In this document: piece by piece, positions 11,300 to 20,463 of the stretch
How the letters are laid out: every line of letters begins with the position of its first letter
Position numbering within the stretch: the first letter of the stretch is position 1
Translations under genes and position numbers: made by a program
Notes under the pieces: generated by a model
What the model was told of the DNA's origin: nothing
What the model saw: only the letters and a program-made list of their open reading frames with translations
Database searches by the model: none
IMG/VR virus record: IMGVR_UViG_3300033068_001577
DNA length: 64,000 bases
DNA from: an uncultured virus (IMG/VR IMGVR_UViG_3300033068_001577)
Lineage: Duplodnaviria; Heunggongvirae; Uroviricota; Caudoviricetes
Direction: 5' to 3' (one strand)

Positions 11300-12070
11300 A
11301 TGAACGATCTTGCTCCCCGCTTCGGCGGAGGCACCGGCCTGATCTCTCGCGACGATCTGGCCCGCTCGCTCAACAACGTCGCCACGGCGGCGCCTCGCGT
11401 TGGCGGCGACAAGCAGTACCTGAAGATGGACAAGGGCAACGGCGACTGGGTCTACGGCCAGGAAGAGACCGTGGTCGAGGAGGGTAGCCTGTGGGCCATC
11501 AACCCGGCCAGCCTGACCTACGGCTATATCAGCTGGGACGCGAACCAGCAGGTCGAAGGCGAGGTGATGGTGTCGATCAGCCGGCCACTGCCGGATCCGT
11601 CGGCGCTGCGCACCCAGGCCCCTGACGGCCAGACGACTGGCGAACATGGCTGGCAGTTCCAGCAGTCCGTCGATCTTGTCTGCGTCAGCGGCGAGGACGT
11701 CAGTGTCGAGTGCCAGTACAAGCAGTCGTCCGTCGGCGCCCGCAAGCTGTTCGCCGGGCTGACCGACGCCCTTGCCGGCCAGCTGGCCAAGGGCTCCGAC
11801 GCCATCGTGCCGATCATCCGCATGGCGTCCGACAGCTACAAGCACAAGAAGTGGGGGCGCATCTTCAACCCCCTCTTCGAGATCGTCGAGTGGCGCACGC
11901 TCGACGACAGCAGCAAGCCGACCGCGGCCGAGCCGGCGCCCGCTGCCAAGGCGGCCGCCAAGACCGTCGAGGCCCCTGCCGATGAGGTCGAAGAGGCCGA
12001 GATCGAGCAGGAATACGTCGAGGCCCAGACCGAAGCCTCGCCGGCCCCCCGCCGTCGGGTTCGGCGCTAG
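11300..12070 (+). CDS. probable single-stranded DNA-binding protein
   Basis: Between exonuclease and polA; YLK..K..G.WVYG...SYKHKKWGRIF.P; acidic low-complexity tail. Confidence 0.65.
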   Translation: MNDLAPRFGGGTGLISRDDLARSLNNVATAAPRVGGDKQYLKMDKGNGDWVYGQEETVVEEGSLWAINPASLTYGYISWDANQQVEGEVMVSISRPLPDPSALRTQAPDGQTTGEHGWQFQQSVDLVCVSGEDVSVECQYKQSSVGARKLFAGLTDALAGQLAKGSDAIVPIIRMASDSYKHKKWGRIFNPLFEIVEWRTLDDSSKPTAAEPAPAAKAAAKTVEAPADEVEEAEIEQEYVEAQTEASPAPRRRVRR

Positions 12071-12073
12071 GCC

Positions 12074-12343
12074 ATGGCCGACGCGGACGAAGGCTCGCGG
12101 ACAGTGGCGATCGGAGGCAACTCCGGCCGCCAGCTCAAGGCGTATTTCGAGCGCATCGAGAAGCTGGCCGAAGAAAAGAAGGCCATCCAGGACGACATCA
12201 AGGACGTGTTCCTTGAAGCCAAGCTGGCCGGCTTCGACCCCAAGATCATGCGCATTCTCCTGCGCCGCCGCGCCATGGCCAAGGCCGAGCGTGACGAGCA
12301 GGACGCCCTGATCGAGACCTACGAGAACGCCGTCGACGGCTGA
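12074..12343 (+). CDS. gapR: GapR/DUF2312 family DNA-binding protein
   Basis: QLKAYFERIEKLAEEKKAIQDDIKDVFLEAK..GFDPKIMR..LR.R...ER.EQ.A..E.Y. Confidence 0.9.
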   Translation: MADADEGSRTVAIGGNSGRQLKAYFERIEKLAEEKKAIQDDIKDVFLEAKLAGFDPKIMRILLRRRAMAKAERDEQDALIETYENAVDG

Positions 12344-12364
12344 CGCCCGGTCGCTTTGACGGTT

Positions 12365-12397
12365 GAAGGCGGCGGTGCAAGCTGCCGCCTTCTGTTT
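12365..12397 (+). terminator. intrinsic terminator
   Basis: Stem GAAGGCGGCGG/CTGCCGCCTTC followed by TGTTT. Confidence 0.55.
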
Positions 12398-12414
12398 GCA
12401 CTAGAGGACCTGCC

Positions 12415-13827
12415 ATGCCCTTCGCCTTCATCGACTTCGAAACGCAGTCGCTCGCCGATCTCCCCGAGGTCGGCACGCTCAACTACGTGCTTGATGCCAG
12501 CACGCGCCCGTTGCTGCTGAGCTGGGCCGTCGACGACGGGCCGACGAAACTGTGGTGTCCGGACCTCGGTCCCGAGCTCGTGCCCGAGGTGTGGGCCTAC
12601 GTGCGGGGGCGCATGTCCGTCATCGAGACGGTGCCGCCCGATCTCGTCGAACTGCTAGGCCGGCCCGACGGTTACCTCTGCGCCCACAATATTTCGTTTG
12701 ATCGTCAGGTATGGCAGCAGATCGCGACGCCCGACTTTGGTTTCCCCGAGATCCGCATTGAACAAACATTGTGCAACCAAGCCCAGTCGCAAGCGAGTAA
12801 CCTTCCCGGCCGCCTCGACTGGGCCGGGCGGAAGCTCGGCCTCGGCGGCAAGACCCAGGGCGGCAAGGGCAACATGCTGCGCTTCGCCCGGCGCGGTGAG
12901 CCGTTGCCCGGATCGCCGGCCGACATCGAAGCCTTGATGGCGAAAGGCAAGACGCGCCAGCAGGCAATCGACATCGCCATCGAAGCCTGGGCCTTGTACC
13001 TCGACTATTCGGTGCAGGACACCGACCTCTTGCGCGACGTCTGGCGCTGCACCCGGCCTTTGGACGCCGCCGAGTGGCAGGAATACTGGGTTTCGGAACG
13101 CATCAACGACCGGGGCATGCTGGCCGATCTCGATGTGTGTCGCGGCGCCATGGCCTATCGCGAGGAAGAAGCGCGGCATGTCGAGGATGAATGCAAGCGC
13201 CTGACCGACGGCGTCATCACGGCGCCGACCCTGACCAAGCAGATCAACGAATGGTTGTACGAACGCCTGCCCGACGATCTCGCCATCGGTATGGTCAAGG
13301 AAGCTGACGCCGAGACGGGCGCAGCCGTGCGCCTGACCGGCGCCAAGGATGTGATCGGTCGGCTGCTGGAAGATGCGCGCGACTCGGACACGCCGCCCGA
13401 GGACCGTGTCATCGAGTTCCTCGAGATGCTGCAGTTCGGTCGCGCCTCGTCGTCGGTGAAGTTCGAGAAGATCCTCAGGCAGTCGGTTGATGGGCGTCTC
13501 GGCGGCTCGTACGTTTTCAACGGCGCCGGGCAGACGGGGCGGTACTGTCTTGCGGAAGGCAGCATGATCTTAGTGCGCAACGCAGTCGGTATCGTAGAAG
13601 ACCGACCTATCGAGCAGGTGACCCCCGATGACGAGGTGTGGGACGGTCACGAGTGGGTGGCGCATGAAGGGGTTGTGTTTAGCGGCGTTAAGGACGTGTT
13701 CGAATACGATGGCGTAACGGCGACGGCCGACCATAAGGTGTTTGTATCAGATACAGAATATACTACCTTGCGCGACGCGGCTCAACGTGGCACACCGATC
13801 GTTAAAGGAGTGCGTTCATGTTCATAA
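12415..13827 (+). CDS. polA: family A DNA polymerase, N-terminal fragment fused to split-intein N half
   Basis: Exonuclease motifs IDFET, AHNISFD, Y..QD; INDRG; ends GAGQTGRY followed by intein N-terminal blocks and a stop. Confidence 0.92.
   Translation: MPFAFIDFETQSLADLPEVGTLNYVLDASTRPLLLSWAVDDGPTKLWCPDLGPELVPEVWAYVRGRMSVIETVPPDLVELLGRPDGYLCAHNISFDRQVWQQIATPDFGFPEIRIEQTLCNQAQSQASNLPGRLDWAGRKLGLGGKTQGGKGNMLRFARRGEPLPGSPADIEALMAKGKTRQQAIDIAIEAWALYLDYSVQDTDLLRDVWRCTRPLDAAEWQEYWVSERINDRGMLADLDVCRGAMAYREEEARHVEDECKRLTDGVITAPTLTKQINEWLYERLPDDLAIGMVKEADAETGAAVRLTGAKDVIGRLLEDARDSDTPPEDRVIEFLEMLQFGRASSSVKFEKILRQSVDGRLGGSYVFNGAGQTGRYCLAEGSMILVRNAVGIVEDRPIEQVTPDDEVWDGHEWVAHEGVVFSGVKDVFEYDGVTATADHKVFVSDTEYTTLRDAAQRGTPIVKGVRSCS
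13546..13824 (+). mobile_element. split intein, N half (93 aa)
   Basis: Starts CLAEGSMILV (block A); contains TATADHKV (block B TxxH); followed by TAA. Confidence 0.88.
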
Positions 13828-14780
13828 TCTACAAAATCGTTTCACCCTCCGGTAAATGCTACGTCGGGATGACCAAGCTCAAGCTAAGCGACCGGTGGGA
13901 CGCGCATTGCACTCGAGCTTTTCGTGCCGGGCGTAAGAACCATCCTTTCTGTTGCGCTATTCGAAAGTATGGGAAGGCAGCGTTTAGCAAAGAGGTGCTG
14001 GAGCAGGTCGCAGATATAGACGAAGCCAAGGCAGCGGAGATTCGCTGGATCGCTTTCTTTCGTAGCTCAGAACGCAGCTATGGATACAACATCTCCGCCG
14101 GCGGCGACTACGACAGCGAAACCGGTAAGTTGGCTATGCGTGAGAAACGTAAAGACCCCGAGTTCGACGCTCGATACAGGGCTAATCTCTCCGCGTCGTT
14201 ACGCAACCGCGCACCGGAAAGCTACGCGGTCCTTCTTGCGAAGGCCAAAGAATGGCGGGCTGAGAACCCTCGACAAGTGTACGAGAATGGCCGCCGCGCG
14301 GTACGGATCGCGACGGCCGCGCAAGGGCGTGACTGGAGCGGCGTGCCTGGGGCAGGTAAGCGCATGCGAGGTACGTGGGGACGGCTTTGGCTACCAAGTA
14401 CGAAGGTAGAGAAGGCTCGACGCGCGTACTTTACCAAGCAAAGAGTGCGCGCTTCATGGGCAACTCTTGACGCGCAAGAGAGAAATAATAGAGGCGAGTC
14501 TATATCAAGAGCTAAAATAACAGCGAACGCAAGTTTGACTAGCGAGCAGAAAAAAGTAAGGGCGGAACAATTAGCATTAGCCCGTAGCAAAGTTGATAGG
14601 TCTAAACAGGCCGTCGCGGCTAGTGCGGGGCAGAAGACTTGGTGGGTTAATCTTCGAAAAGATCCTGAACGATACGCTACGTACATAGAGGCACGCCGTG
14701 CAAAACTTCTCAGTAACCTTAAGGCCAAGTCCGACATTCGACATCGTGAACGCGGGTCCGAGGAATCGGTTCACGACTAA
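13818..14780 (+). CDS. free-standing GIY-YIG homing endonuclease between the split-intein halves
   Basis: IIYKI...YVGMT...RW..H...IRKYG...E..WI...GYN; own AAGGAG RBS; lower GC than flanks. Confidence 0.88.
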   Translation: MFIIYKIVSPSGKCYVGMTKLKLSDRWDAHCTRAFRAGRKNHPFCCAIRKYGKAAFSKEVLEQVADIDEAKAAEIRWIAFFRSSERSYGYNISAGGDYDSETGKLAMREKRKDPEFDARYRANLSASLRNRAPESYAVLLAKAKEWRAENPRQVYENGRRAVRIATAAQGRDWSGVPGAGKRMRGTWGRLWLPSTKVEKARRAYFTKQRVRASWATLDAQERNNRGESISRAKITANASLTSEQKKVRAEQLALARSKVDRSKQAVAASAGQKTWWVNLRKDPERYATYIEARRAKLLSNLKAKSDIRHRERGSEESVHD

Positions 14781-14799
14781 TGGGCGTATTGTTTCGAAT
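14698..14799 (+). mobile_element. split intein, C half (34 aa)
   Basis: TFDIVNAGPRNRFTTNGRIVSN then Ser+1; splicing restores the PolA motif TGRY-SSRGVQVHNLP. Confidence 0.85.
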
Positions 14800-16767
14800 T
14801 CATCGCGCGGAGTCCAGGTCCACAACCTGCCACGCGACGCCTTCAAAAACGAGCTCGACCTGTTGGATATGCTGGCGGCGCAGGCACCGATCGAACAGCT
14901 GCGCGCCTTCGGGCCAGTCAGCGCCACGCTCTCGAAGCTGATCCGCCCGACCTTCATCGCGCCGGAAAAGAAGCTGCTCGTCTGGGGCGACTGGTCTGCC
15001 ATCGAGGCGCGGGTCAATCCGTGGCTGGCCGCCAGCCGCGACGCGGAAGAGGCAGTGCTGACACCGTTCCGCAACGGCGACGATCTCTACATCCTCGACG
15101 CTGCTTCTATTTTTAACGTGGACCCGGCCGCGCTGTATGAGCGCTACAAGTCAGGGGACAAAGAGGCCAAGTCTATGAGGCAGGCCGGTAAGGTGGCGTG
15201 CATAGCCGCTGGGCAAAAAGTCCTGACAGACGTAGGTCTTGTGCCGATAGAAGATGTCACCCTTGACATGCGCGTGTGGGACGGGCAAAGTTTTGTCTCG
15301 CATCAGGGTTCTATGTTTAAGGGGTACAAGGATGTCTGGGAGTATGACGGGCTCATCGCCACCCTCGACCACGTCGTCTGGACAGAAGAAGCGGGCGCCA
15401 CCAAGTTCGGTGAAGCGATCCGACGCGGTCAACATCTCGTTAAATCCGGCGCAGGTCGGGCAGCGGTTCGGCTGGCTGGAGATCATCTCCCCAGAGCGTC
15501 TGTACCTTCGACCGAAATGGGTCATGTGCTATGTGCTGTGCCGATGCACGGGCTGCGGCGAAGAGAAGTACGTCTACCTGGGGAACCTGCAGCAAGGAAA
15601 AACGCAAGGCTGCCAGCACTGTTCGCAGCCACGGCAGATACCGAAATGGCTGGACCGTCGGCTGACTGCCGCCAAGGCGCGATGCACAAACCCGAACGAC
15701 CAAGCGTGGAAGTGGTATGGAGCCCGTGGAATCGAGTTCCGGTTTTCATCCGTGCTGGAAGCGGGGCTTTGGATACAGGCGAACATAGGGCTGCGCAAAG
15801 ACTTGGAGATCGACCGCATCGACATGAACGGGCACTACGAACCCGGCAACATTCGGTGGGCGACCGAGCATCAGCAGCAATCAAACAAGCGGGATTCGAA
15901 ACTCGCGGAGAACTGGGTCTTCATTCAGAGCGAGTGGCCTTACGCCAAGCTCACGACATACCACAAGCTACTGCAGGGCTTCACTCGCGAGGAGATCATT
16001 CAGCAGGCGCGCGACGCCGTGGAGGAACGCCGGAAGGCGTGGCCCACTATCGCGGCAAGGTTGCAGTCTATGACATCCTCAACGCTGGACCCCTACACCG
16101 GTTTACCGTATCCGACCGCCTTGTCCACAACTGCCTAGCGCTGGGCTTCCTCGGTGGCGTCGGCGCCCTCAAGGCGATGGCGCGCGGCTATGGCATGCGC
16201 CTGTCGGATGAAGAGGCCAAGGCCATCGTCGATGGTTGGCGCGACCGCAACCGCTGGGCCCGGCGCTTCGGCATCAAGTGCGAGGAGGCCGCCTTCGCAG
16301 CGATCAGTTCTCCGGGCTCGATGCACAAGGCCGGGCTGGTTAGCTACCAGTACGCGCCGGGGCTGATGGCCGGGACGCTCGTGGCATTCCTGCCCGACGG
16401 CCGGCCGATCGTTTACCCGATGGCCAGGATCGAAAAGGTCGAGCGCTTCGGCAAGGAGCAGAACGCCATCACCTACCTCAACGGCATGGGCCGGCGTTCA
16501 CTTTGGTTGGGCCTCCAGGTGGAAAATTTGGTACAAGCATCTGCCGCTTCGATCCTGCGCCAGACCCTCCTCCGTCTTGAGGACGACCCCGAGGCCGAAA
16601 CTGTCGGGCACACACATGATGAAGTGATCGGCGAGGTTGACGAGACTAAGGCTAGTGGCTTTGCCGAGCGCCTGCACAGCGTTATGGTGAAGGGCTTTGA
16701 CTGGACCGAGGGTCTGCCGCTCGCCGCCGAGATCTCGCAGTCCTGGTACTATTCGAAGCTCGTATGA
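14698..16767 (+). CDS. polA: family A DNA polymerase, C-terminal fragment (split-intein C half, polymerase domain, second intein)
   Basis: Motif A DWSAIEAR, motif B RQAGK..(intein)CLALGF, ENLVQA, motif C HTHDEV; GTG start with GAGG 6 nt upstream and in-frame TAG at 14686. Confidence 0.92.
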   Translation: MQNFSVTLRPSPTFDIVNAGPRNRFTTNGRIVSNSSRGVQVHNLPRDAFKNELDLLDMLAAQAPIEQLRAFGPVSATLSKLIRPTFIAPEKKLLVWGDWSAIEARVNPWLAASRDAEEAVLTPFRNGDDLYILDAASIFNVDPAALYERYKSGDKEAKSMRQAGKVACIAAGQKVLTDVGLVPIEDVTLDMRVWDGQSFVSHQGSMFKGYKDVWEYDGLIATLDHVVWTEEAGATKFGEAIRRGQHLVKSGAGRAAVRLAGDHLPRASVPSTEMGHVLCAVPMHGLRRREVRLPGEPAARKNARLPALFAATADTEMAGPSADCRQGAMHKPERPSVEVVWSPWNRVPVFIRAGSGALDTGEHRAAQRLGDRPHRHERALRTRQHSVGDRASAAIKQAGFETRGELGLHSERVALRQAHDIPQATAGLHSRGDHSAGARRRGGTPEGVAHYRGKVAVYDILNAGPLHRFTVSDRLVHNCLALGFLGGVGALKAMARGYGMRLSDEEAKAIVDGWRDRNRWARRFGIKCEEAAFAAISSPGSMHKAGLVSYQYAPGLMAGTLVAFLPDGRPIVYPMARIEKVERFGKEQNAITYLNGMGRRSLWLGLQVENLVQASAASILRQTLLRLEDDPEAETVGHTHDEVIGEVDETKASGFAERLHSVMVKGFDWTEGLPLAAEISQSWYYSKLV
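15199..16131 (+). mobile_element. contiguous intein (311 aa) in polymerase motif B
   Basis: CIAAGQKVLT...ATLDHVVW...VYDILNAGPLHRFTVSDRLVHN then Cys+1; removal restores RQAGKVA-CLALGFLGG. Confidence 0.92.
15410..16138 (+). CDS. HNH-like homing endonuclease encoded in the +1 frame inside the intein
   Basis: GQRFGWL..CRCTGCG..GCQHC..ARCTNPN..WYGARGI..EIDRIDMNGHYEPGNIRWAT..QQSNKR; start uncertain (GTG 15410 or ATG 15254). Confidence 0.82.
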   Translation: MKRSDAVNISLNPAQVGQRFGWLEIISPERLYLRPKWVMCYVLCRCTGCGEEKYVYLGNLQQGKTQGCQHCSQPRQIPKWLDRRLTAAKARCTNPNDQAWKWYGARGIEFRFSSVLEAGLWIQANIGLRKDLEIDRIDMNGHYEPGNIRWATEHQQQSNKRDSKLAENWVFIQSEWPYAKLTTYHKLLQGFTREEIIQQARDAVEERRKAWPTIAARLQSMTSSTLDPYTGLPYPTALSTTA

Positions 16768-16813
16768 GCGCCGCGCCGGCTCCAACGGGCGCGCACCAAG
16801 GGGACACCGCCGC

Positions 16814-18115
16814 ATGCCAATCGACATCATTGAGGGGGACTCTCGCGAAGTCCTGACCGAGTTCGCAGACAACTCCATCGACTCGTGCGTTACCGATCCG
16901 CCCTATGCGCTGACCGCGAACAAGAAAGGCGGTACAGGCCCCGCGTCCGTAAATCTCAACACGCCGGCTGGGCGCGCCCGCATAACTGTCGGGTTCATGG
17001 GCAAGGCATGGGACAATGGCGACACGGCCTTCGATCCTGCCTTCTGGGTCGAGGTGCTGCGCGTCCTCAAGCCCGGCGCGCATCTTCTAGCCTTCGGCGG
17101 TACGCGCACCTATCACCGGCTGGTCTGCGCGATCGAGGACGCGGGCTTCGAAATCCGCGACCAGATCGGCTGGGCGTATGGGTCTGGATTTCCGAAATCG
17201 CATGATGTGGCTAAGTCAATTGACAAGGCTGCACGCGGCGTTCCGCATGGCGGCGCGGACCCGACGAGCCCGAACCACGGAAAGTTCAAGGGCGGTTGCT
17301 CTGACGAGAACGCAGGTGGGCAGGGATTTGGAGCTGGTCCAGGTCAATTCATGGCAGAAGCAGGCATTAAGGTCGTGCGTGAGTATGTCGATAATGCCGC
17401 GCAATGGCAAGGCTGGGGCACCGCGCTAAAGCCGGCGTGGGAGCCGATCTGCCTAGCCCGCAAACCACTGGCCGGGACGGTAGCCGAGAACGTGCTTGAG
17501 CACGGCACTGGCGCGCTGAATATCGATGGGTGTCGGGTTGGCTGGCCTGGCGACAAGGTTCCCGAGATTGGAACCCCCGCATGGGGAGGCCCGAACAAGA
17601 AGTCTACTGCGGTCCCCGGTCAGGACGGCGACACGGTTGAGCGAGTTGGCCCCTCCGAACTCGGCCGCTGGCCTGCCAACATCATCCACGACGGCAGCGA
17701 CGAGGTGCTGGCGGCGTTTCCGGATACGCGCTCTGGTGCAATGAAGCGCGAGGTTCCAGGTTACGATGGTGACAGCGTAACTGGGTTTATACGGGGCAGG
17801 AGCGGGCCATCCAATCAGCACGGAGACTCCGGCTCCGCCGCCCGCTTCTTCTATTGCGCCAAGGCCAGCAAGAAAGATCGCGGCGAGGGCAACAGCCATC
17901 CGACCGTGAAGCCGACCGAGCTGATGCGCTATCTGTGCCGGCTGGTGACGCCCCCCGGCGGCACGGTGCTGGACCCCTTTATGGGATCGGGCAGCACGGG
18001 CGTCGCGGCGCAGGACGAGGGCTTCTCGTTCACCGGCATCGAGGCCGACGCGAGCTACTTCGACATCGCGTGCAAGCGCCTTGGTCTTGACGACGCAATG
18101 CAGGCGGCGGAATAG
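16814..18115 (+). CDS. DNA methyltransferase (probably N6-adenine)
   Basis: TDPPY, GFPKS, GWGTALKPAWEPI, GRWPAN, HPTVKP, VLDPFMGSGSTG. Confidence 0.92.
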   Translation: MPIDIIEGDSREVLTEFADNSIDSCVTDPPYALTANKKGGTGPASVNLNTPAGRARITVGFMGKAWDNGDTAFDPAFWVEVLRVLKPGAHLLAFGGTRTYHRLVCAIEDAGFEIRDQIGWAYGSGFPKSHDVAKSIDKAARGVPHGGADPTSPNHGKFKGGCSDENAGGQGFGAGPGQFMAEAGIKVVREYVDNAAQWQGWGTALKPAWEPICLARKPLAGTVAENVLEHGTGALNIDGCRVGWPGDKVPEIGTPAWGGPNKKSTAVPGQDGDTVERVGPSELGRWPANIIHDGSDEVLAAFPDTRSGAMKREVPGYDGDSVTGFIRGRSGPSNQHGDSGSAARFFYCAKASKKDRGEGNSHPTVKPTELMRYLCRLVTPPGGTVLDPFMGSGSTGVAAQDEGFSFTGIEADASYFDIACKRLGLDDAMQAAE

Positions 18116-18117
18116 CG

Positions 18118-20463
18118 ATGCACCCCCACGACAACCGAACCGACCTGCGCCTCAAGCTCTATGAGAACGGCTTCACGCCGCTCGCCAACCGGCGCAAGAT
18201 GTGCCTCCTGAAAGACTGGTCACGCCTCGAGGTGACGCCCGACCTGATCCGCTCCAAGGAATGGGCGCGATCCAAGGCTTTCCCCGACACCGGCATCCGC
18301 TGCGGCGATGTCGTCGCGCTCGACTGGGACATCGACGACAAGGTGCTGCTCAACGACATGCTCGACGCCGCCGTCGAACAGGGTGTCGTTGCCGAGTCGC
18401 CCTTCGTCCGCATCGGCCGGCCGCCGCGTGAGCTCTGGGTCTATCGAACCAGCGATCGTATCGGCAAGCGAACGACTGGCCATTTCGCGCCGCCCGACGC
18501 GGCACCTGATTTCGGCGGCTATGCCGTCGAGGTGCTAGGCGCCGGCTGCCAGTTCGCCGCCTACGGCCAGCGCGACGATGAGAACTGGTACGACTGGCCC
18601 GATGCCAGCCTTGCCGATCACGTCTACATGGACCTGCCGCCGATCAGCATGGCTGAGGTCGAGGCGCTCGTCGCCTTCGCCGCGGGCTTCTTCGAGCAGC
18701 GCGGGTTGAAGCGCCTGTCGCCAGGCGGTGGCACCGACGCCGGCTACACCCACGCCTACGACCTGACCGAGGACCTGAGCTTCGAGGTCAAGGATGTCGG
18801 GCACCTGTCATTGGCCGAGATCACCGCCGCGCTTGAGGCCGATCCCGAGCGCGTCCTGCGCGTCACGGTTGACGCCCTTCGCCCCACCTCTGGCAGCTGG
18901 GCCGGCATGGCCTCGCTTGTCGGTGGCGTTCTCTGCGTCTCCGACCACGGCACTTACACCAGCCACTTCCCGGTATCCTACGACCTTGAGCGCAGCATGT
19001 CGGCGCTCGGCCAGCTCCTTGCCGGCCTCATAACGCAACCCAAGCCCAAGGAGCCGGCGCGCGGCAAGCTGCCGGACCTTGACCTCAATGCCCAGGCCGA
19101 GTTCGACGCCAACTACCGCGTCATGCTCGACAACTTCGTCTATGTCGCCGACACCGACGTGGTGATCGACCTCCGCCACCCGACGATCACCATGAAGATC
19201 CCGCACCTCCACAACCGCCTCTCGAACTTCACGACCGAAGAGGTCGGGCCCAAGGGCGGCAAGGTCATCACGCGCCTCTCTGACCTGTGGATGCGCAACC
19301 CCAACCGCATGATGGTCCGCGGCTTCGGGCTCAGACCCGACCGTGAGTGGCCGGTCTACGAGGAGAATGGCGACCGCCACCTCAACACCTTCCGCGACCA
19401 CGTCCTGCCCGAAGATGGCGATGCCGCCATGGGCTTTGACTTCCTCGAGCGCCTGCTACCGATCGCCGAGGAGCGCCAGTATTTCATTCGCTGGCTAGGC
19501 AACAAGCTGTTGCACCCTGAGCAGCGCGGCCCGGCGATCTTCATGGTGGCGCACGAGACCTACGGCACCGGGCGCGGTTCGCTGATCTCGATCATCCGCT
19601 CGATGTTCGCGCCCGGGCTGGTCCGCAACATCGACTTCAAGACGCTCTCGGGCCAGACCTACCAGAGCCAGTACAACGAGTGGCTGTCCGACAGCCTGAT
19701 CGTCGCGGTCGACGAGGCGCAGGAAGCCACGCAAACCATGTCGCGCTGGCAGACGCGCCTCAATGCCTATGAGCATCTGAAGGGCGTCATCGACCCGGCC
19801 GTCAACGACCTCGACGTCAAGCGCAAGGGCATCTCGAACGGACCCGGCCGCACCTACGCCTCGATCATGGTGATGACCAACCACATGGATTCGCTGGTCC
19901 TGCCCAAGAACGACCGGCGCATCGCCGTGCTCGAGAACGGCAACACCCAGTCCGAAGCCTACTATGCCGCGCTGCACGCCTGGCGCGCCGTGCCGGGCAA
20001 TATCGGCGCGTTCGTCCGGGCGTTGAAGGACGTCGACATGGGAACCTACAGCGCCTTCGCCGCGCCGCCGATGACCAAGGCCAAGGTCGAGATGGCCGAG
20101 GCCGGGGAGTCCGAGATCGACCGGCTGTTCAAGAGCGCCACCGGACGCTGGGCCAACACGGTCCTCGTCAAGGAACAGGTGCTGCTCGCGCTCGAGGACG
20201 AGATCGCCGACAACACTGTCGAGTTGCCCGACGACTGGCGGCGGACGGCCGAGCGACTGTTCACGCGCGCGACGCGCACGCTTCCCGAGGCGCTGCCGGC
20301 GCGGCTGCGGATCGAGGGCAAGCAACGCCAGGTGCGCATGTTCGGACGCCCGGCCCCGGCAGTTTTACAGTCCGCGCAGACTGTGCTAGACGAGGTTCTG
20401 CGCAACGGTCCTGTCTCGCGTCCAATGCGCGCAAATAACGTGGTGTCGTTCCCGTCGCGCTAG
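18118..20463 (+). CDS. primase/polymerase fused to P-loop helicase (DUF5906-like)
   Basis: Prim-pol-like TGIRCG..VALDWD and VEVLG.G.QF.AYG; C-terminal YGTGRGS, SQYNEW, VAVDE, MTNH, DRR. Confidence 0.8.
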   Translation: MHPHDNRTDLRLKLYENGFTPLANRRKMCLLKDWSRLEVTPDLIRSKEWARSKAFPDTGIRCGDVVALDWDIDDKVLLNDMLDAAVEQGVVAESPFVRIGRPPRELWVYRTSDRIGKRTTGHFAPPDAAPDFGGYAVEVLGAGCQFAAYGQRDDENWYDWPDASLADHVYMDLPPISMAEVEALVAFAAGFFEQRGLKRLSPGGGTDAGYTHAYDLTEDLSFEVKDVGHLSLAEITAALEADPERVLRVTVDALRPTSGSWAGMASLVGGVLCVSDHGTYTSHFPVSYDLERSMSALGQLLAGLITQPKPKEPARGKLPDLDLNAQAEFDANYRVMLDNFVYVADTDVVIDLRHPTITMKIPHLHNRLSNFTTEEVGPKGGKVITRLSDLWMRNPNRMMVRGFGLRPDREWPVYEENGDRHLNTFRDHVLPEDGDAAMGFDFLERLLPIAEERQYFIRWLGNKLLHPEQRGPAIFMVAHETYGTGRGSLISIIRSMFAPGLVRNIDFKTLSGQTYQSQYNEWLSDSLIVAVDEAQEATQTMSRWQTRLNAYEHLKGVIDPAVNDLDVKRKGISNGPGRTYASIMVMTNHMDSLVLPKNDRRIAVLENGNTQSEAYYAALHAWRAVPGNIGAFVRALKDVDMGTYSAFAAPPMTKAKVEMAEAGESEIDRLFKSATGRWANTVLVKEQVLLALEDEIADNTVELPDDWRRTAERLFTRATRTLPEALPARLRIEGKQRQVRMFGRPAPAVLQSAQTVLDEVLRNGPVSRPMRANNVVSFPSR

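Follow-up and report, generated by a model that had tools for sequence, protein, structure and literature searches.

Can one stretch of DNA encode, in two reading frames of the same strand, both an intein and a nuclease? The question is raised by a 64,000-nucleotide stretch of an uncultured virus (IMG/VR record IMGVR_UViG_3300033068_001577, Caudoviricetes; ‘the window’ hereafter, meaning the whole of that stretch), in which a phage-type family A DNA polymerase gene is interrupted by two related inteins. The second of these, intein 2, keeps the polymerase frame open along its entire length, and the same letters read in the +1 frame give an HNH-like nuclease. We ask here whether this layout is real, how widely it is shared and how it might work. 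Frame 0 denotes the frame of the polymerase and of its inteins, and +1 and +2 the two other frames of that strand; positions are those of the window, and the coordinates of its features are collected in Table 1.

Intein 2 and the gene overprinted on it

Intein 2 splits motif B of the polymerase between RQAGKVA and CLALGFLGG, and its frame 0 runs unbroken from Cys1 at 15199 to the terminal His-Asn at 16131, 311 residues without a stop, exactly as an initial annotation of this DNA had it. Its nucleophiles are those of a class 1 intein (Cys at 15199–15201, Cys+1 at 16132–16134), and across 46 aligned inteins C1 and D292, T55 and H58 of block B (ATLDH), and N311 of the C-terminal VHN are all invariant, with H310 retained in at least 90%. 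As a protein, frame 0 has a sole match, to phrog_26005, which covers residues 17–64 and hence the splicing part; its centre is unlike an endonuclease, again in agreement with what had been described.

An AlphaFold model of the frame-0 intein, made with the 46 aligned sequences, has a predicted local distance difference test score (pLDDT) above 90 at approximately residues 1–95 and 281–311, and below 50, with no secondary structure, at approximately residues 100–280. The top rows of a Foldseek search with this model are inteins and other HINT domains, none of them at E ≤ 0.001; the Npu DnaE intein (4kl5) is found at an E-value of 2.7e-3 and a probability of 1.00, over 96 columns with a root-mean-square deviation (rmsd) of 2.7. 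The model thus predicts a HINT fold assembled from the N and C parts of intein 2. With its catalytic residues intact, and with an essential site (motif B) interrupted, intein 2 is predicted to splice; because frame 0 contains no stop, the polymerase that carries it would be one polypeptide, and splicing would be in cis.

Two other descriptions of the insert were tried and rejected: a split intein or fractured gene, there being no frame-0 stop, and a group I intron with an endonuclease open reading frame (ORF), since an Rfam scan of 12000–17000 found no family at its gathering score and HINT halves flank the ORF.

Read in +1, the same DNA gives the motifs GQRFGWL, CRCTGCG, RCTNPN, YGARGI and IDRIDMNGHYEPGNIRWAT, followed by a TAG stop at 16136–16138; the HNH-like protein ending at 16138 that had been proposed for this frame is therefore present, and it matches two PHROG families of HNH endonucleases (phrog_374, E-value 1.9e-27; phrog_3377, E-value 2.5e-21). 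Its conserved part starts near 15455 (GQRFGW), and the 3' tail of the gene overlaps the C part of intein 2 as well as 7 bases of the extein. A model of the nuclease, made with 45 sequences (mean pLDDT 86), divides into three: an N domain that is rich in beta structure and has four invariant Cys; a core; and a C domain that is helical. Arg136 is invariant in the 45 aligned nucleases, as are N147 and N159, the conserved Asn residues of the HNH motif. Compared with the sequences of solved structures, the +1 protein returned nothing beyond chance rows at an E-value of 1.

The +1 layout in relatives

Of 50,697 phage records searched by tblastn with the +1 protein, 770 were matched. The best seven listed (47–50% identity, 95–98% coverage) all lie inside annotated DNA polymerase genes, namely those of Streptococcus phages Javan113, Javan101, Javan107, Javan104, Javan255 and PhiSdyV1524, and of Gardnerella phage vB_Gva_AB1; in both Javan113 and the Gardnerella phage the nuclease is likewise +1 to a polymerase coding sequence that is itself unbroken, at 43–45% G+C. 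A scan of viral contigs with the single protein gave no match, whereas alignment-based scans did, and from these 47 viral and 79 genome loci were fetched.

The window and 128 loci make up a set of 129 sources, in 97 of which the intein N part, the nuclease and the intein C part were all matched. In every one of these 97 complete sources the nuclease lies in +1 and the C part returns to frame 0, which has no stop in its central ~220 codons; the +1 frame is itself stop-free in 93 (the exceptions being L048, L049, L074 and L095), and the unused +2 frame contains 2–26 stops. The incomplete sources are 5 without a match to the C part and 27 without one to the N part, the latter mostly free-standing relatives of the nuclease. 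A metagenome scan added 64 further loci, 48 of them complete, with an identical layout and frame 0 open; among the others, 10 have no match to the N or the C part, 2 are cut at the N end, L184 has 4 frame-0 stops, L188 and L189 are frame-shifted and L192 is partial. Altogether, 145 complete loci (97 plus 48) share the same +1 layout with zero frame-0 stops, over a range of 38–67% G+C. Inspection of nine odd loci found a truncated group (L012, L157, L169) and one full-length case that tblastn had missed (L090).

By the titles of the records, the hosts include Lachnospiraceae, Peptoniphilus, Anaerococcus, Gardnerella, Corynebacterium, Megasphaera, Synergistaceae and Spirochaetaceae, together with Ignavibacteriaceae, Pedobacter, Caldilinea, Lentisphaeria, Methylobacterium, and alpha-, gamma- and deltaproteobacterial metagenome-assembled genomes. 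Extraction of 95 inteins yielded 75 unique DNA sequences, of which 54 are 309 codons long.

Several relatives are shorter or rearranged. Inteins of 255–263 codons are found in L044–L047, L089, L100, L181 and L185–L187, where the nuclease is without its C-terminal helical domain and +1 is still open; L049 is a 168-codon intein with only a remnant of the nuclease, and has a +1 stop. Frame 0 is open in all of the shortened inteins, L049 included. In L012, L013, L157, L169 and L170 the intein ends just past the ...VYDI of the C part, with unrelated A+T-rich sequence in its place, and in L157 a shift inside block B places the intein N part and the nuclease in one frame; these loci look like decayed or rearranged prophage copies. 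Lastly, in a 962-amino-acid database polymerase (P0005) the intein and the nuclease core share one frame: compared with Megasphaera elsdenii locus L078 it shows a 1-base loss and a 1-base gain, both at A6 runs (L078:2060–2125 and L078:2500–2570). Such a form would be either an error of homopolymer sequencing or a natural intermediate on the way to a canonical in-frame HNH intein.

Stop avoidance and frame-specific selection

Would frame 0 stay open by chance? In our test the synonymous codons of the +1 ORF were permuted, 1000 times for each unique intein and 100,000 times for the window. Frame 0 holds no stop in any of the 75 unique inteins, against 3.3–15.6 expected from the shuffles; zero stops is reached by at most 2% of the 1000 shuffles of each intein, and the +2 frame equals expectation. 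For the window alone the shuffles have a mean of 4.4 frame-0 stops, with none in 386 of the 100,000. A stop in frame 0 requires a T-ending +1 codon followed by one that opens with AA, AG or GA, and the host frame can thus stay open by synonymous choice: not one of 4459 nuclease codons standing before a codon of that kind ends in T, compared with 2785 of 10472 elsewhere.

Variability by codon position was taken from 30 representatives, less than 90% identical in nucleotides, of the 54 inteins of exactly 309 codons. Frame-0 position 3 is the most variable in codons 1–60 and 301–309; in codons 61–285 it is frame-0 position 1, i.e. the third position of +1, and towards the ends of the overlap (approximately codons 65–95 and 286–300) all three positions are conserved. 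Mean amino-acid identity over the central part reaches 0.64 in +1, as against 0.31 for frame 0 and 0.32 for +2, which is unused. The nearest relatives of the window give a similar picture: against L129, whose nuclease is 85% identical, differences at frame-0 positions 1/2/3 number 4/6/20 in the N part and 71/21/9 in the centre, the sole indel being one of 3 bases; against L130, the corresponding counts are 6/6/23 and 89/40/29.

The +1 nuclease frame is under purifying selection, and the overlapped intein frame is relaxed; that homologous inteins would conserve amino acids in +1 and do no more than avoid stops in frame 0 had been predicted by the initial annotation, and both are found. The overprinted layout is neither chance nor assembly error, and is under selection.

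Candidate starts of the nuclease

The start of the nuclease had been placed at GTG 15410 or ATG 15254; ATG 15332 fits better, its position being kept in the nearest relatives (L129 and L130). The closest database proteins, P0008 (86% identity) and P0009 (76%), have their first Met at the aligned position, and the AAGGGG that precedes ATG 15332 is kept in L130 and weaker in L129; ATG 15344 is found in the window only. We consider ATG 15332 more likely to be the start than the other candidates. ATG 15254 was rejected, most relatives having a +1 stop two to three codons before the codon-49 ATG described below, downstream of the position equivalent to 15254.

In the subclade of the window the candidate start ATG lies four codons before an ATG that most relatives carry over the intein Tyr49 codon (TAT+G). 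This +1 ATG is present in 58 of the 75 inteins, and in 55 of the 58 a Shine-Dalgarno-like motif, often AAGGAGGT and written in intein Lys/Arg-Glu-Val codons, stands 4–12 bases upstream, compared with 12% at other positions. A second conserved +1 ATG (‘MVG’) occurs in 55 of 66 relatives, two codons before the G-x-(R/K)-F-G motif; as a start it was rejected, GGAG abutting this ATG without a spacer and the ATG being absent from the window.

Free-standing relatives of the nuclease (e.g. L109, L114, L118, L121 and L124) are 160–240 codons long; their starts stand 2–11 codons ahead of this G-x-(R/K)-F-G motif, and many have a clear ribosome-binding site upstream. For the nuclease ORF, gene callers give proteins of 243–271 residues, a length that fits an upstream start; where it is called, the ORF falls into 287 protein clusters, of which very few have a Pfam domain, and the source names are mostly ‘hypothetical protein’. 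Scans of 14700–16400 gave 0 promoter sites and, on the minus strand, a single terminator-like site, a count not above that of shuffled sequence.

Other sequencing runs and signs of mobility

Contigs over 15000–16400 were compared for four runs of three studies, and no inserted or deleted letter was found in the contigs of any of the four; the compensating indels against which the window had to be checked are absent from these contigs. The contigs of run X1 are identical to the window (X1 may be its source run). Run X4, from wastewater and a different study, has a 1207-base contig across 15017–16223, and thus the whole intein, with 44 substitutions and 0 gaps; 22 substitutions are listed in 15440–16050, of which 21 are synonymous in +1 and one in frame 0, and no stops are made.

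In run X2, a 186-base contig links 15101 to 16138; it skips 1036 bases and has 103 other letters in their place, which leaves it 933 bases short, the exact length of intein 2. This joint is consistent with the sample also containing a related polymerase allele that has no intein and that would have diverged from the window just upstream of the insertion site. Between the window and Javan113 the exteins are 25–30% identical (25% for the N-terminal extein, against the DNA polymerase I of Javan113, and 30% for the C-terminal), the intein N part 59% and the nuclease 49%. The insert is therefore better conserved than the gene that hosts it, as would fit horizontal spread.

A working model and its alternatives

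We assign a probability of roughly 85% to the reading that intein 2 is a contiguous, cis-splicing class 1 intein in motif B, on which an HNH-like gene of the free-standing type has been overprinted in +1. Ribosomes coming from the polymerase start would read frame 0 straight through, giving a precursor in which the HINT halves (approximately residues 1–95 and 281–311) are joined by an unstructured linker of ~185 residues; this linker would be the out-of-frame reading of the nuclease gene. Intein 2 would then splice out, restoring motif B. Other ribosomes would start within the N-terminal coding region of the intein, at ATG 15332, and read +1; their product, the nuclease, presumably cuts polymerase alleles that have no intein and so would lead to homing. 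Frame 0 is kept open at no cost to the nuclease protein, through the purging of T-before-AA/AG/GA pairs by synonymous choice.

Several observations weigh against this reading. The +1 protein has no match at E ≤ 0.1 among Pfam and NCBIfam models, and a Foldseek search of the nuclease model against the Protein Data Bank returns nothing at E ≤ 0.001, with I-HmuI at rank 15 and an E-value of 2.2; by VIA-align the likeness of the nuclease core to PacI (3m7k_A) is weak (Z 5.4, rmsd 3.0, 74 residues over model residues 75–162), and an unrelated chain, at Z 5.6, ties with it. In HNH enzymes, the His at the end of the first beta strand (D-H-I-D) acts as the general base; the core of the +1 protein has D-R where these enzymes have D-H, and the catalytic His is missing. 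As regards the start, there is no +1 amino-acid constraint between the proposed position and approximately codon 65, the ‘MVG’ ATG is wanting in both the window and L102, and the Shine-Dalgarno-like motif and ATG coincide with conserved intein residues, so that their conservation may stem in part from frame 0. Many of the counted loci are closely related, with 38 clusters when their first 270 bases are grouped at 75% identity; the X2 joint is one short contig with 35 letters on its shorter side; and no listed run is recorded as RNA.

The +1 protein might have been co-opted by the phage, for DNA binding, for nicking in replication or packaging, or to help splicing, and be kept for that benefit rather than for homing. 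An Arg-for-His core could mean that its cleavage chemistry is altered or lost, and a layout so widespread and stable (309 codons in most of the unique inteins) would suit such a role. We think this unlikely: the protein is related to typical free-standing nuclease genes of phages, conservation across distant phages is higher for the intein than for the host gene, the X2 joint fits an intein-less allele that co-occurs with the intein, and differential loss of a polymerase intein is reported for APSE phages in the available text of PMC7313666.

Could translation instead reach the nuclease from upstream, through a programmed +1 frameshift of the ribosome or slippage during transcription, so that the product is fused to the N-extein and the N part of the intein? 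Constraint of the +1 type does start near codon 65, upstream of the ‘MVG’ ATG, and A6 runs lie at both frame junctions of L078, where P0005 reads through in frame. Such runs are not a feature of the family, however, and the G+C-rich window is without any at its junctions; no conserved RNA structure is found around the frame junction (consensus energy -0.51 kcal/mol, with a double change in 1 of 13 pairs). A conserved start codon with a Shine-Dalgarno-like motif is found instead, at a place homologous to where the free-standing relatives start, and we regard a frameshift or slippage as quite improbable.

That the nuclease gene is a dead relic, unused, with frame 0 open by chance or recent history, has very little probability in our judgement. 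Arg does replace the catalytic His, and relatives do decay, L049 being a remnant with a +1 stop and L074, L095, L184, L188 and L189 having stops or frame shifts. Against this, the +1 frame is under purifying selection both in the family and in the lineage of the window, where the ORF is intact, and Arg occupies the core position in all 118 sources (of 129) that match the core-motif pattern, free-standing genes included. ‘DR’ is therefore a trait of the family: the initial annotation was right that the core reads DR and not DH, but this is no defect of the present copy. The Arg-for-His nucleases form a family that is common in phages and without a match among solved structures.

An assembly or sequencing artefact, two compensating indels having pushed an in-frame HNH intein out of frame, is scarcely credible: P0005 shows that such forms or errors exist, but the +1 layout recurs in the 97 complete sources and in 48 of the 64 metagenome loci, and hence in many assemblies, the contigs of the four runs are free of indels, and error would not clear every T before AA, AG or GA.

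The polymerase gene around intein 2

Table 1. Features of the polymerase gene and its inteins in the window.
Feature	Position	Strand	Remarks
Family A DNA polymerase (phage-type) gene	12415–16767	+	phrog_17; Pfam PF00476; interrupted by two related inteins
Polymerase N-terminal extein (exonuclease and N part of polymerase)	12415–13545	+	phrog_17 DNA polymerase, E-value 2.7e-29
Intein 1, N half (CLAEGSMILV...TADH...)	13546–13827	+	terminated by stop 13825–13827
GIY-YIG homing-endonuclease gene, free-standing, between the halves of intein 1	13818–14780	+	different frame
Intein 1, C half (GTG start ... FDIVNAGPRNRFTTNGRIVSN)	14698–14799	+	same frame as N half; then Ser+1 at 14800
Extein between the inteins	14800–15198	+	Pfam PF00476 DNA_pol_A, E-value 2.3e-10, on ORF 14698–16767; ends ...RQAGKVA, first half of motif B
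Intein 2	15199–16131	+	Cys1 ... His-Asn, 311 codons, frame 0 stop-free
Shine-Dalgarno-like AAGGGG	15319–15324	+	7 bases before ATG 15332, inside intein Lys-Gly codons; candidate, from sequence
HNH-like (‘DR’ type) endonuclease gene	15332–16138	+	frame +1, 268 codons plus TAG
Alternative nuclease starts	ATG 15344, GTG 15410	+	frame +1
Polymerase C-terminal extein	16132–16767	+	Cys+1 (CLALGFLGGVGALKAM...), second half of motif B, then motif C; phrog_17 and phrog_10285 DNA polymerase
Intein-less motif B site			sequence across junction (at slash): ...GGTAAGGTGGCG/TGCCTAGCG...

Upstream of intein 2, the N-terminal extein ends with the residues ...GAGQTGRY, directly before intein 1, the start of which (13546) falls within the conserved TGR-x-SS stretch. 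The N parts of the two inteins are 46% identical (E-value 1e-21). Frame 0 of intein 1 has 11 stops between its N and C halves, and the GIY-YIG gene that lies there, matched by Pfam PF01541 (E-value 2.3e-5) and by the homing endonucleases of phrog_314 (E-value 1.1e-20), shares 10 bases and 83 bases with the neighbouring halves; its match to TIGR01453 (E-value 1.4e-12) is under the curated cut-off of that model. On its sequence, the layout of intein 1 is that of the fractured genes of Dassa et al. (2009; PMC2677866), in which, as far as the available text goes, split inteins surround a free-standing endonuclease gene.

Downstream, an ORF at 16697–18115 that overlaps the 3' end of the polymerase appears by eye to be DNA methyltransferase-like (DPPY and related motifs), and is followed by a large ORF of 781 amino acids at 18118–20463.

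Significance and comparison with known systems

Intein 2 falls among the inteins with an out-of-frame endonuclease gene on the same strand. Taken together, the results may tentatively describe the largest and most widespread family of dual-coded inteins yet, ruled by a single synonymous-codon rule, with ribosome-binding site and start written in HINT codons and with an evolutionary route open to test; we hold this wider claim at slightly less than even odds. At least 145 loci were found, in Firmicutes, Actinobacteria, Proteobacteria, Bacteroidota, Chloroflexota, Spirochaetes and other groups. The route, long argued over, could become directly testable, since one polymerase has both a split and an overprinted intein and there are relatives that are short, remnant or possibly in frame (L044–L047, L049, L100, P0005); if real, it would lead from a free-standing endonuclease gene to an overprinted intein, and from there to a split or a canonical in-frame intein.

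More generally, ~650 bases can serve, in two frames and over long evolutionary time, both a selfish endonuclease gene and its sheltering intein; the polymerase would survive because splicing removes, together with the intein, the junk reading of the nuclease gene. For annotation, the consequence is that gene callers report one long polymerase with an unexplained 200-residue insert and miss the nuclease; for intein engineers, the ~185-residue stop-free linker may be of interest as a length of unstructured insert that this intein type tolerates.

The kind of layout is already known, since out-of-frame intein endonucleases are in print (Gorbalenya 1998, as cited, and two preprints of 2025–26) and a nested gene is present in the record of phage APSE-1; the initial annotation had likewise supposed the architecture to be rare rather than new. 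In actinophage inteins (bioRxiv 10.1101/2025.01.02.630785), going by the available text, an endonuclease VII-like nuclease lies out of frame on the same strand, in frame 3, and HNH nucleases are reported in frame only; the origin proposed for this layout is the invasion of an intein by a free-standing endonuclease gene. The likeness to intein 2, itself predicted to splice, is that a splicing-competent intein keeps the extein/intein frame open over a same-strand endonuclease in another frame. The actinophage host genes, in that text, are those of terminase, capsid, thymidylate synthase and DNA polymerase (the polymerase named being DNA polymerase III alpha); intein 2 differs in its nuclease being HNH-like and in +1, in its site in motif B of a family A polymerase, and in the many bacterial phyla over which its family is spread.

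A cyanobacterial DnaX intein has an out-of-frame LAGLIDADG endonuclease in +2 (Phillips, DeSimone and Gogarten, bioRxiv 10.64898/2026.09.14.751524), and the available text of that preprint credits Gorbalenya 1998 for an out-of-frame endonuclease. There, too, the frames overlap, with a low ratio of nonsynonymous to synonymous change (dN/dS) in the endonuclease frame and a relaxed intein frame, and full, mini and empty alleles coexist, a further likeness to the family of intein 2; nuclease type, frame, host gene (dnaX) and a cellular rather than phage setting are the differences, on the same partial text. The ShiLan domain (PMC11855218) is described, in the text available, as an out-of-frame HNH without an intein. 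Like intein 2 it hides an HNH gene in another frame and adds no stop to the host frame; in contrast, it has no splicing domain and the insert stays in the protein, its HNH gene lying in the third frame (195 amino acids, GTG start without a ribosome-binding site). With the fractured genes of Dassa et al., so far as that text shows, intein 2 has in common an endonuclease gene at the endonuclease site of an intein, the 3' end of which overlaps the next coding region, and is set apart from them by its stop-free intein frame.

A +1 HNH gene inside an intein of a family A polymerase was not found in open papers and preprints, a search that left aside subscription journals and bioRxiv supplements, the latter of which may list cases; nor did we find, in the open literature, a paper discussing the P45/P46 overlap of APSE-1. 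That Hamiltonella phage (NC_000935) provides a close parallel. Its family A polymerase, P45, has an intein of the same HINT type (VWDG...TADH...VHN/C, the slash marking the junction) with the polymerase frame open, and nested within it, in +1 and on the same strand, is P46, annotated as ‘HNH endonuclease’, with the same ‘DR’ core as in the window (29% identity to the core of the window nuclease, E-value 8e-16). P46 is shorter, at 140 amino acids, and is without the N-terminal zinc-ribbon domain. The APSE-1 intein stands at another polymerase site (...YGGKS/C...VHN/CENICQAAARD; L193, 828–3809, minus strand), unlike that of either intein of the window; with its nested +1 ‘DR’ ORF, it suggests that inteins of this type pair with out-of-frame nucleases at several sites in the polymerase.

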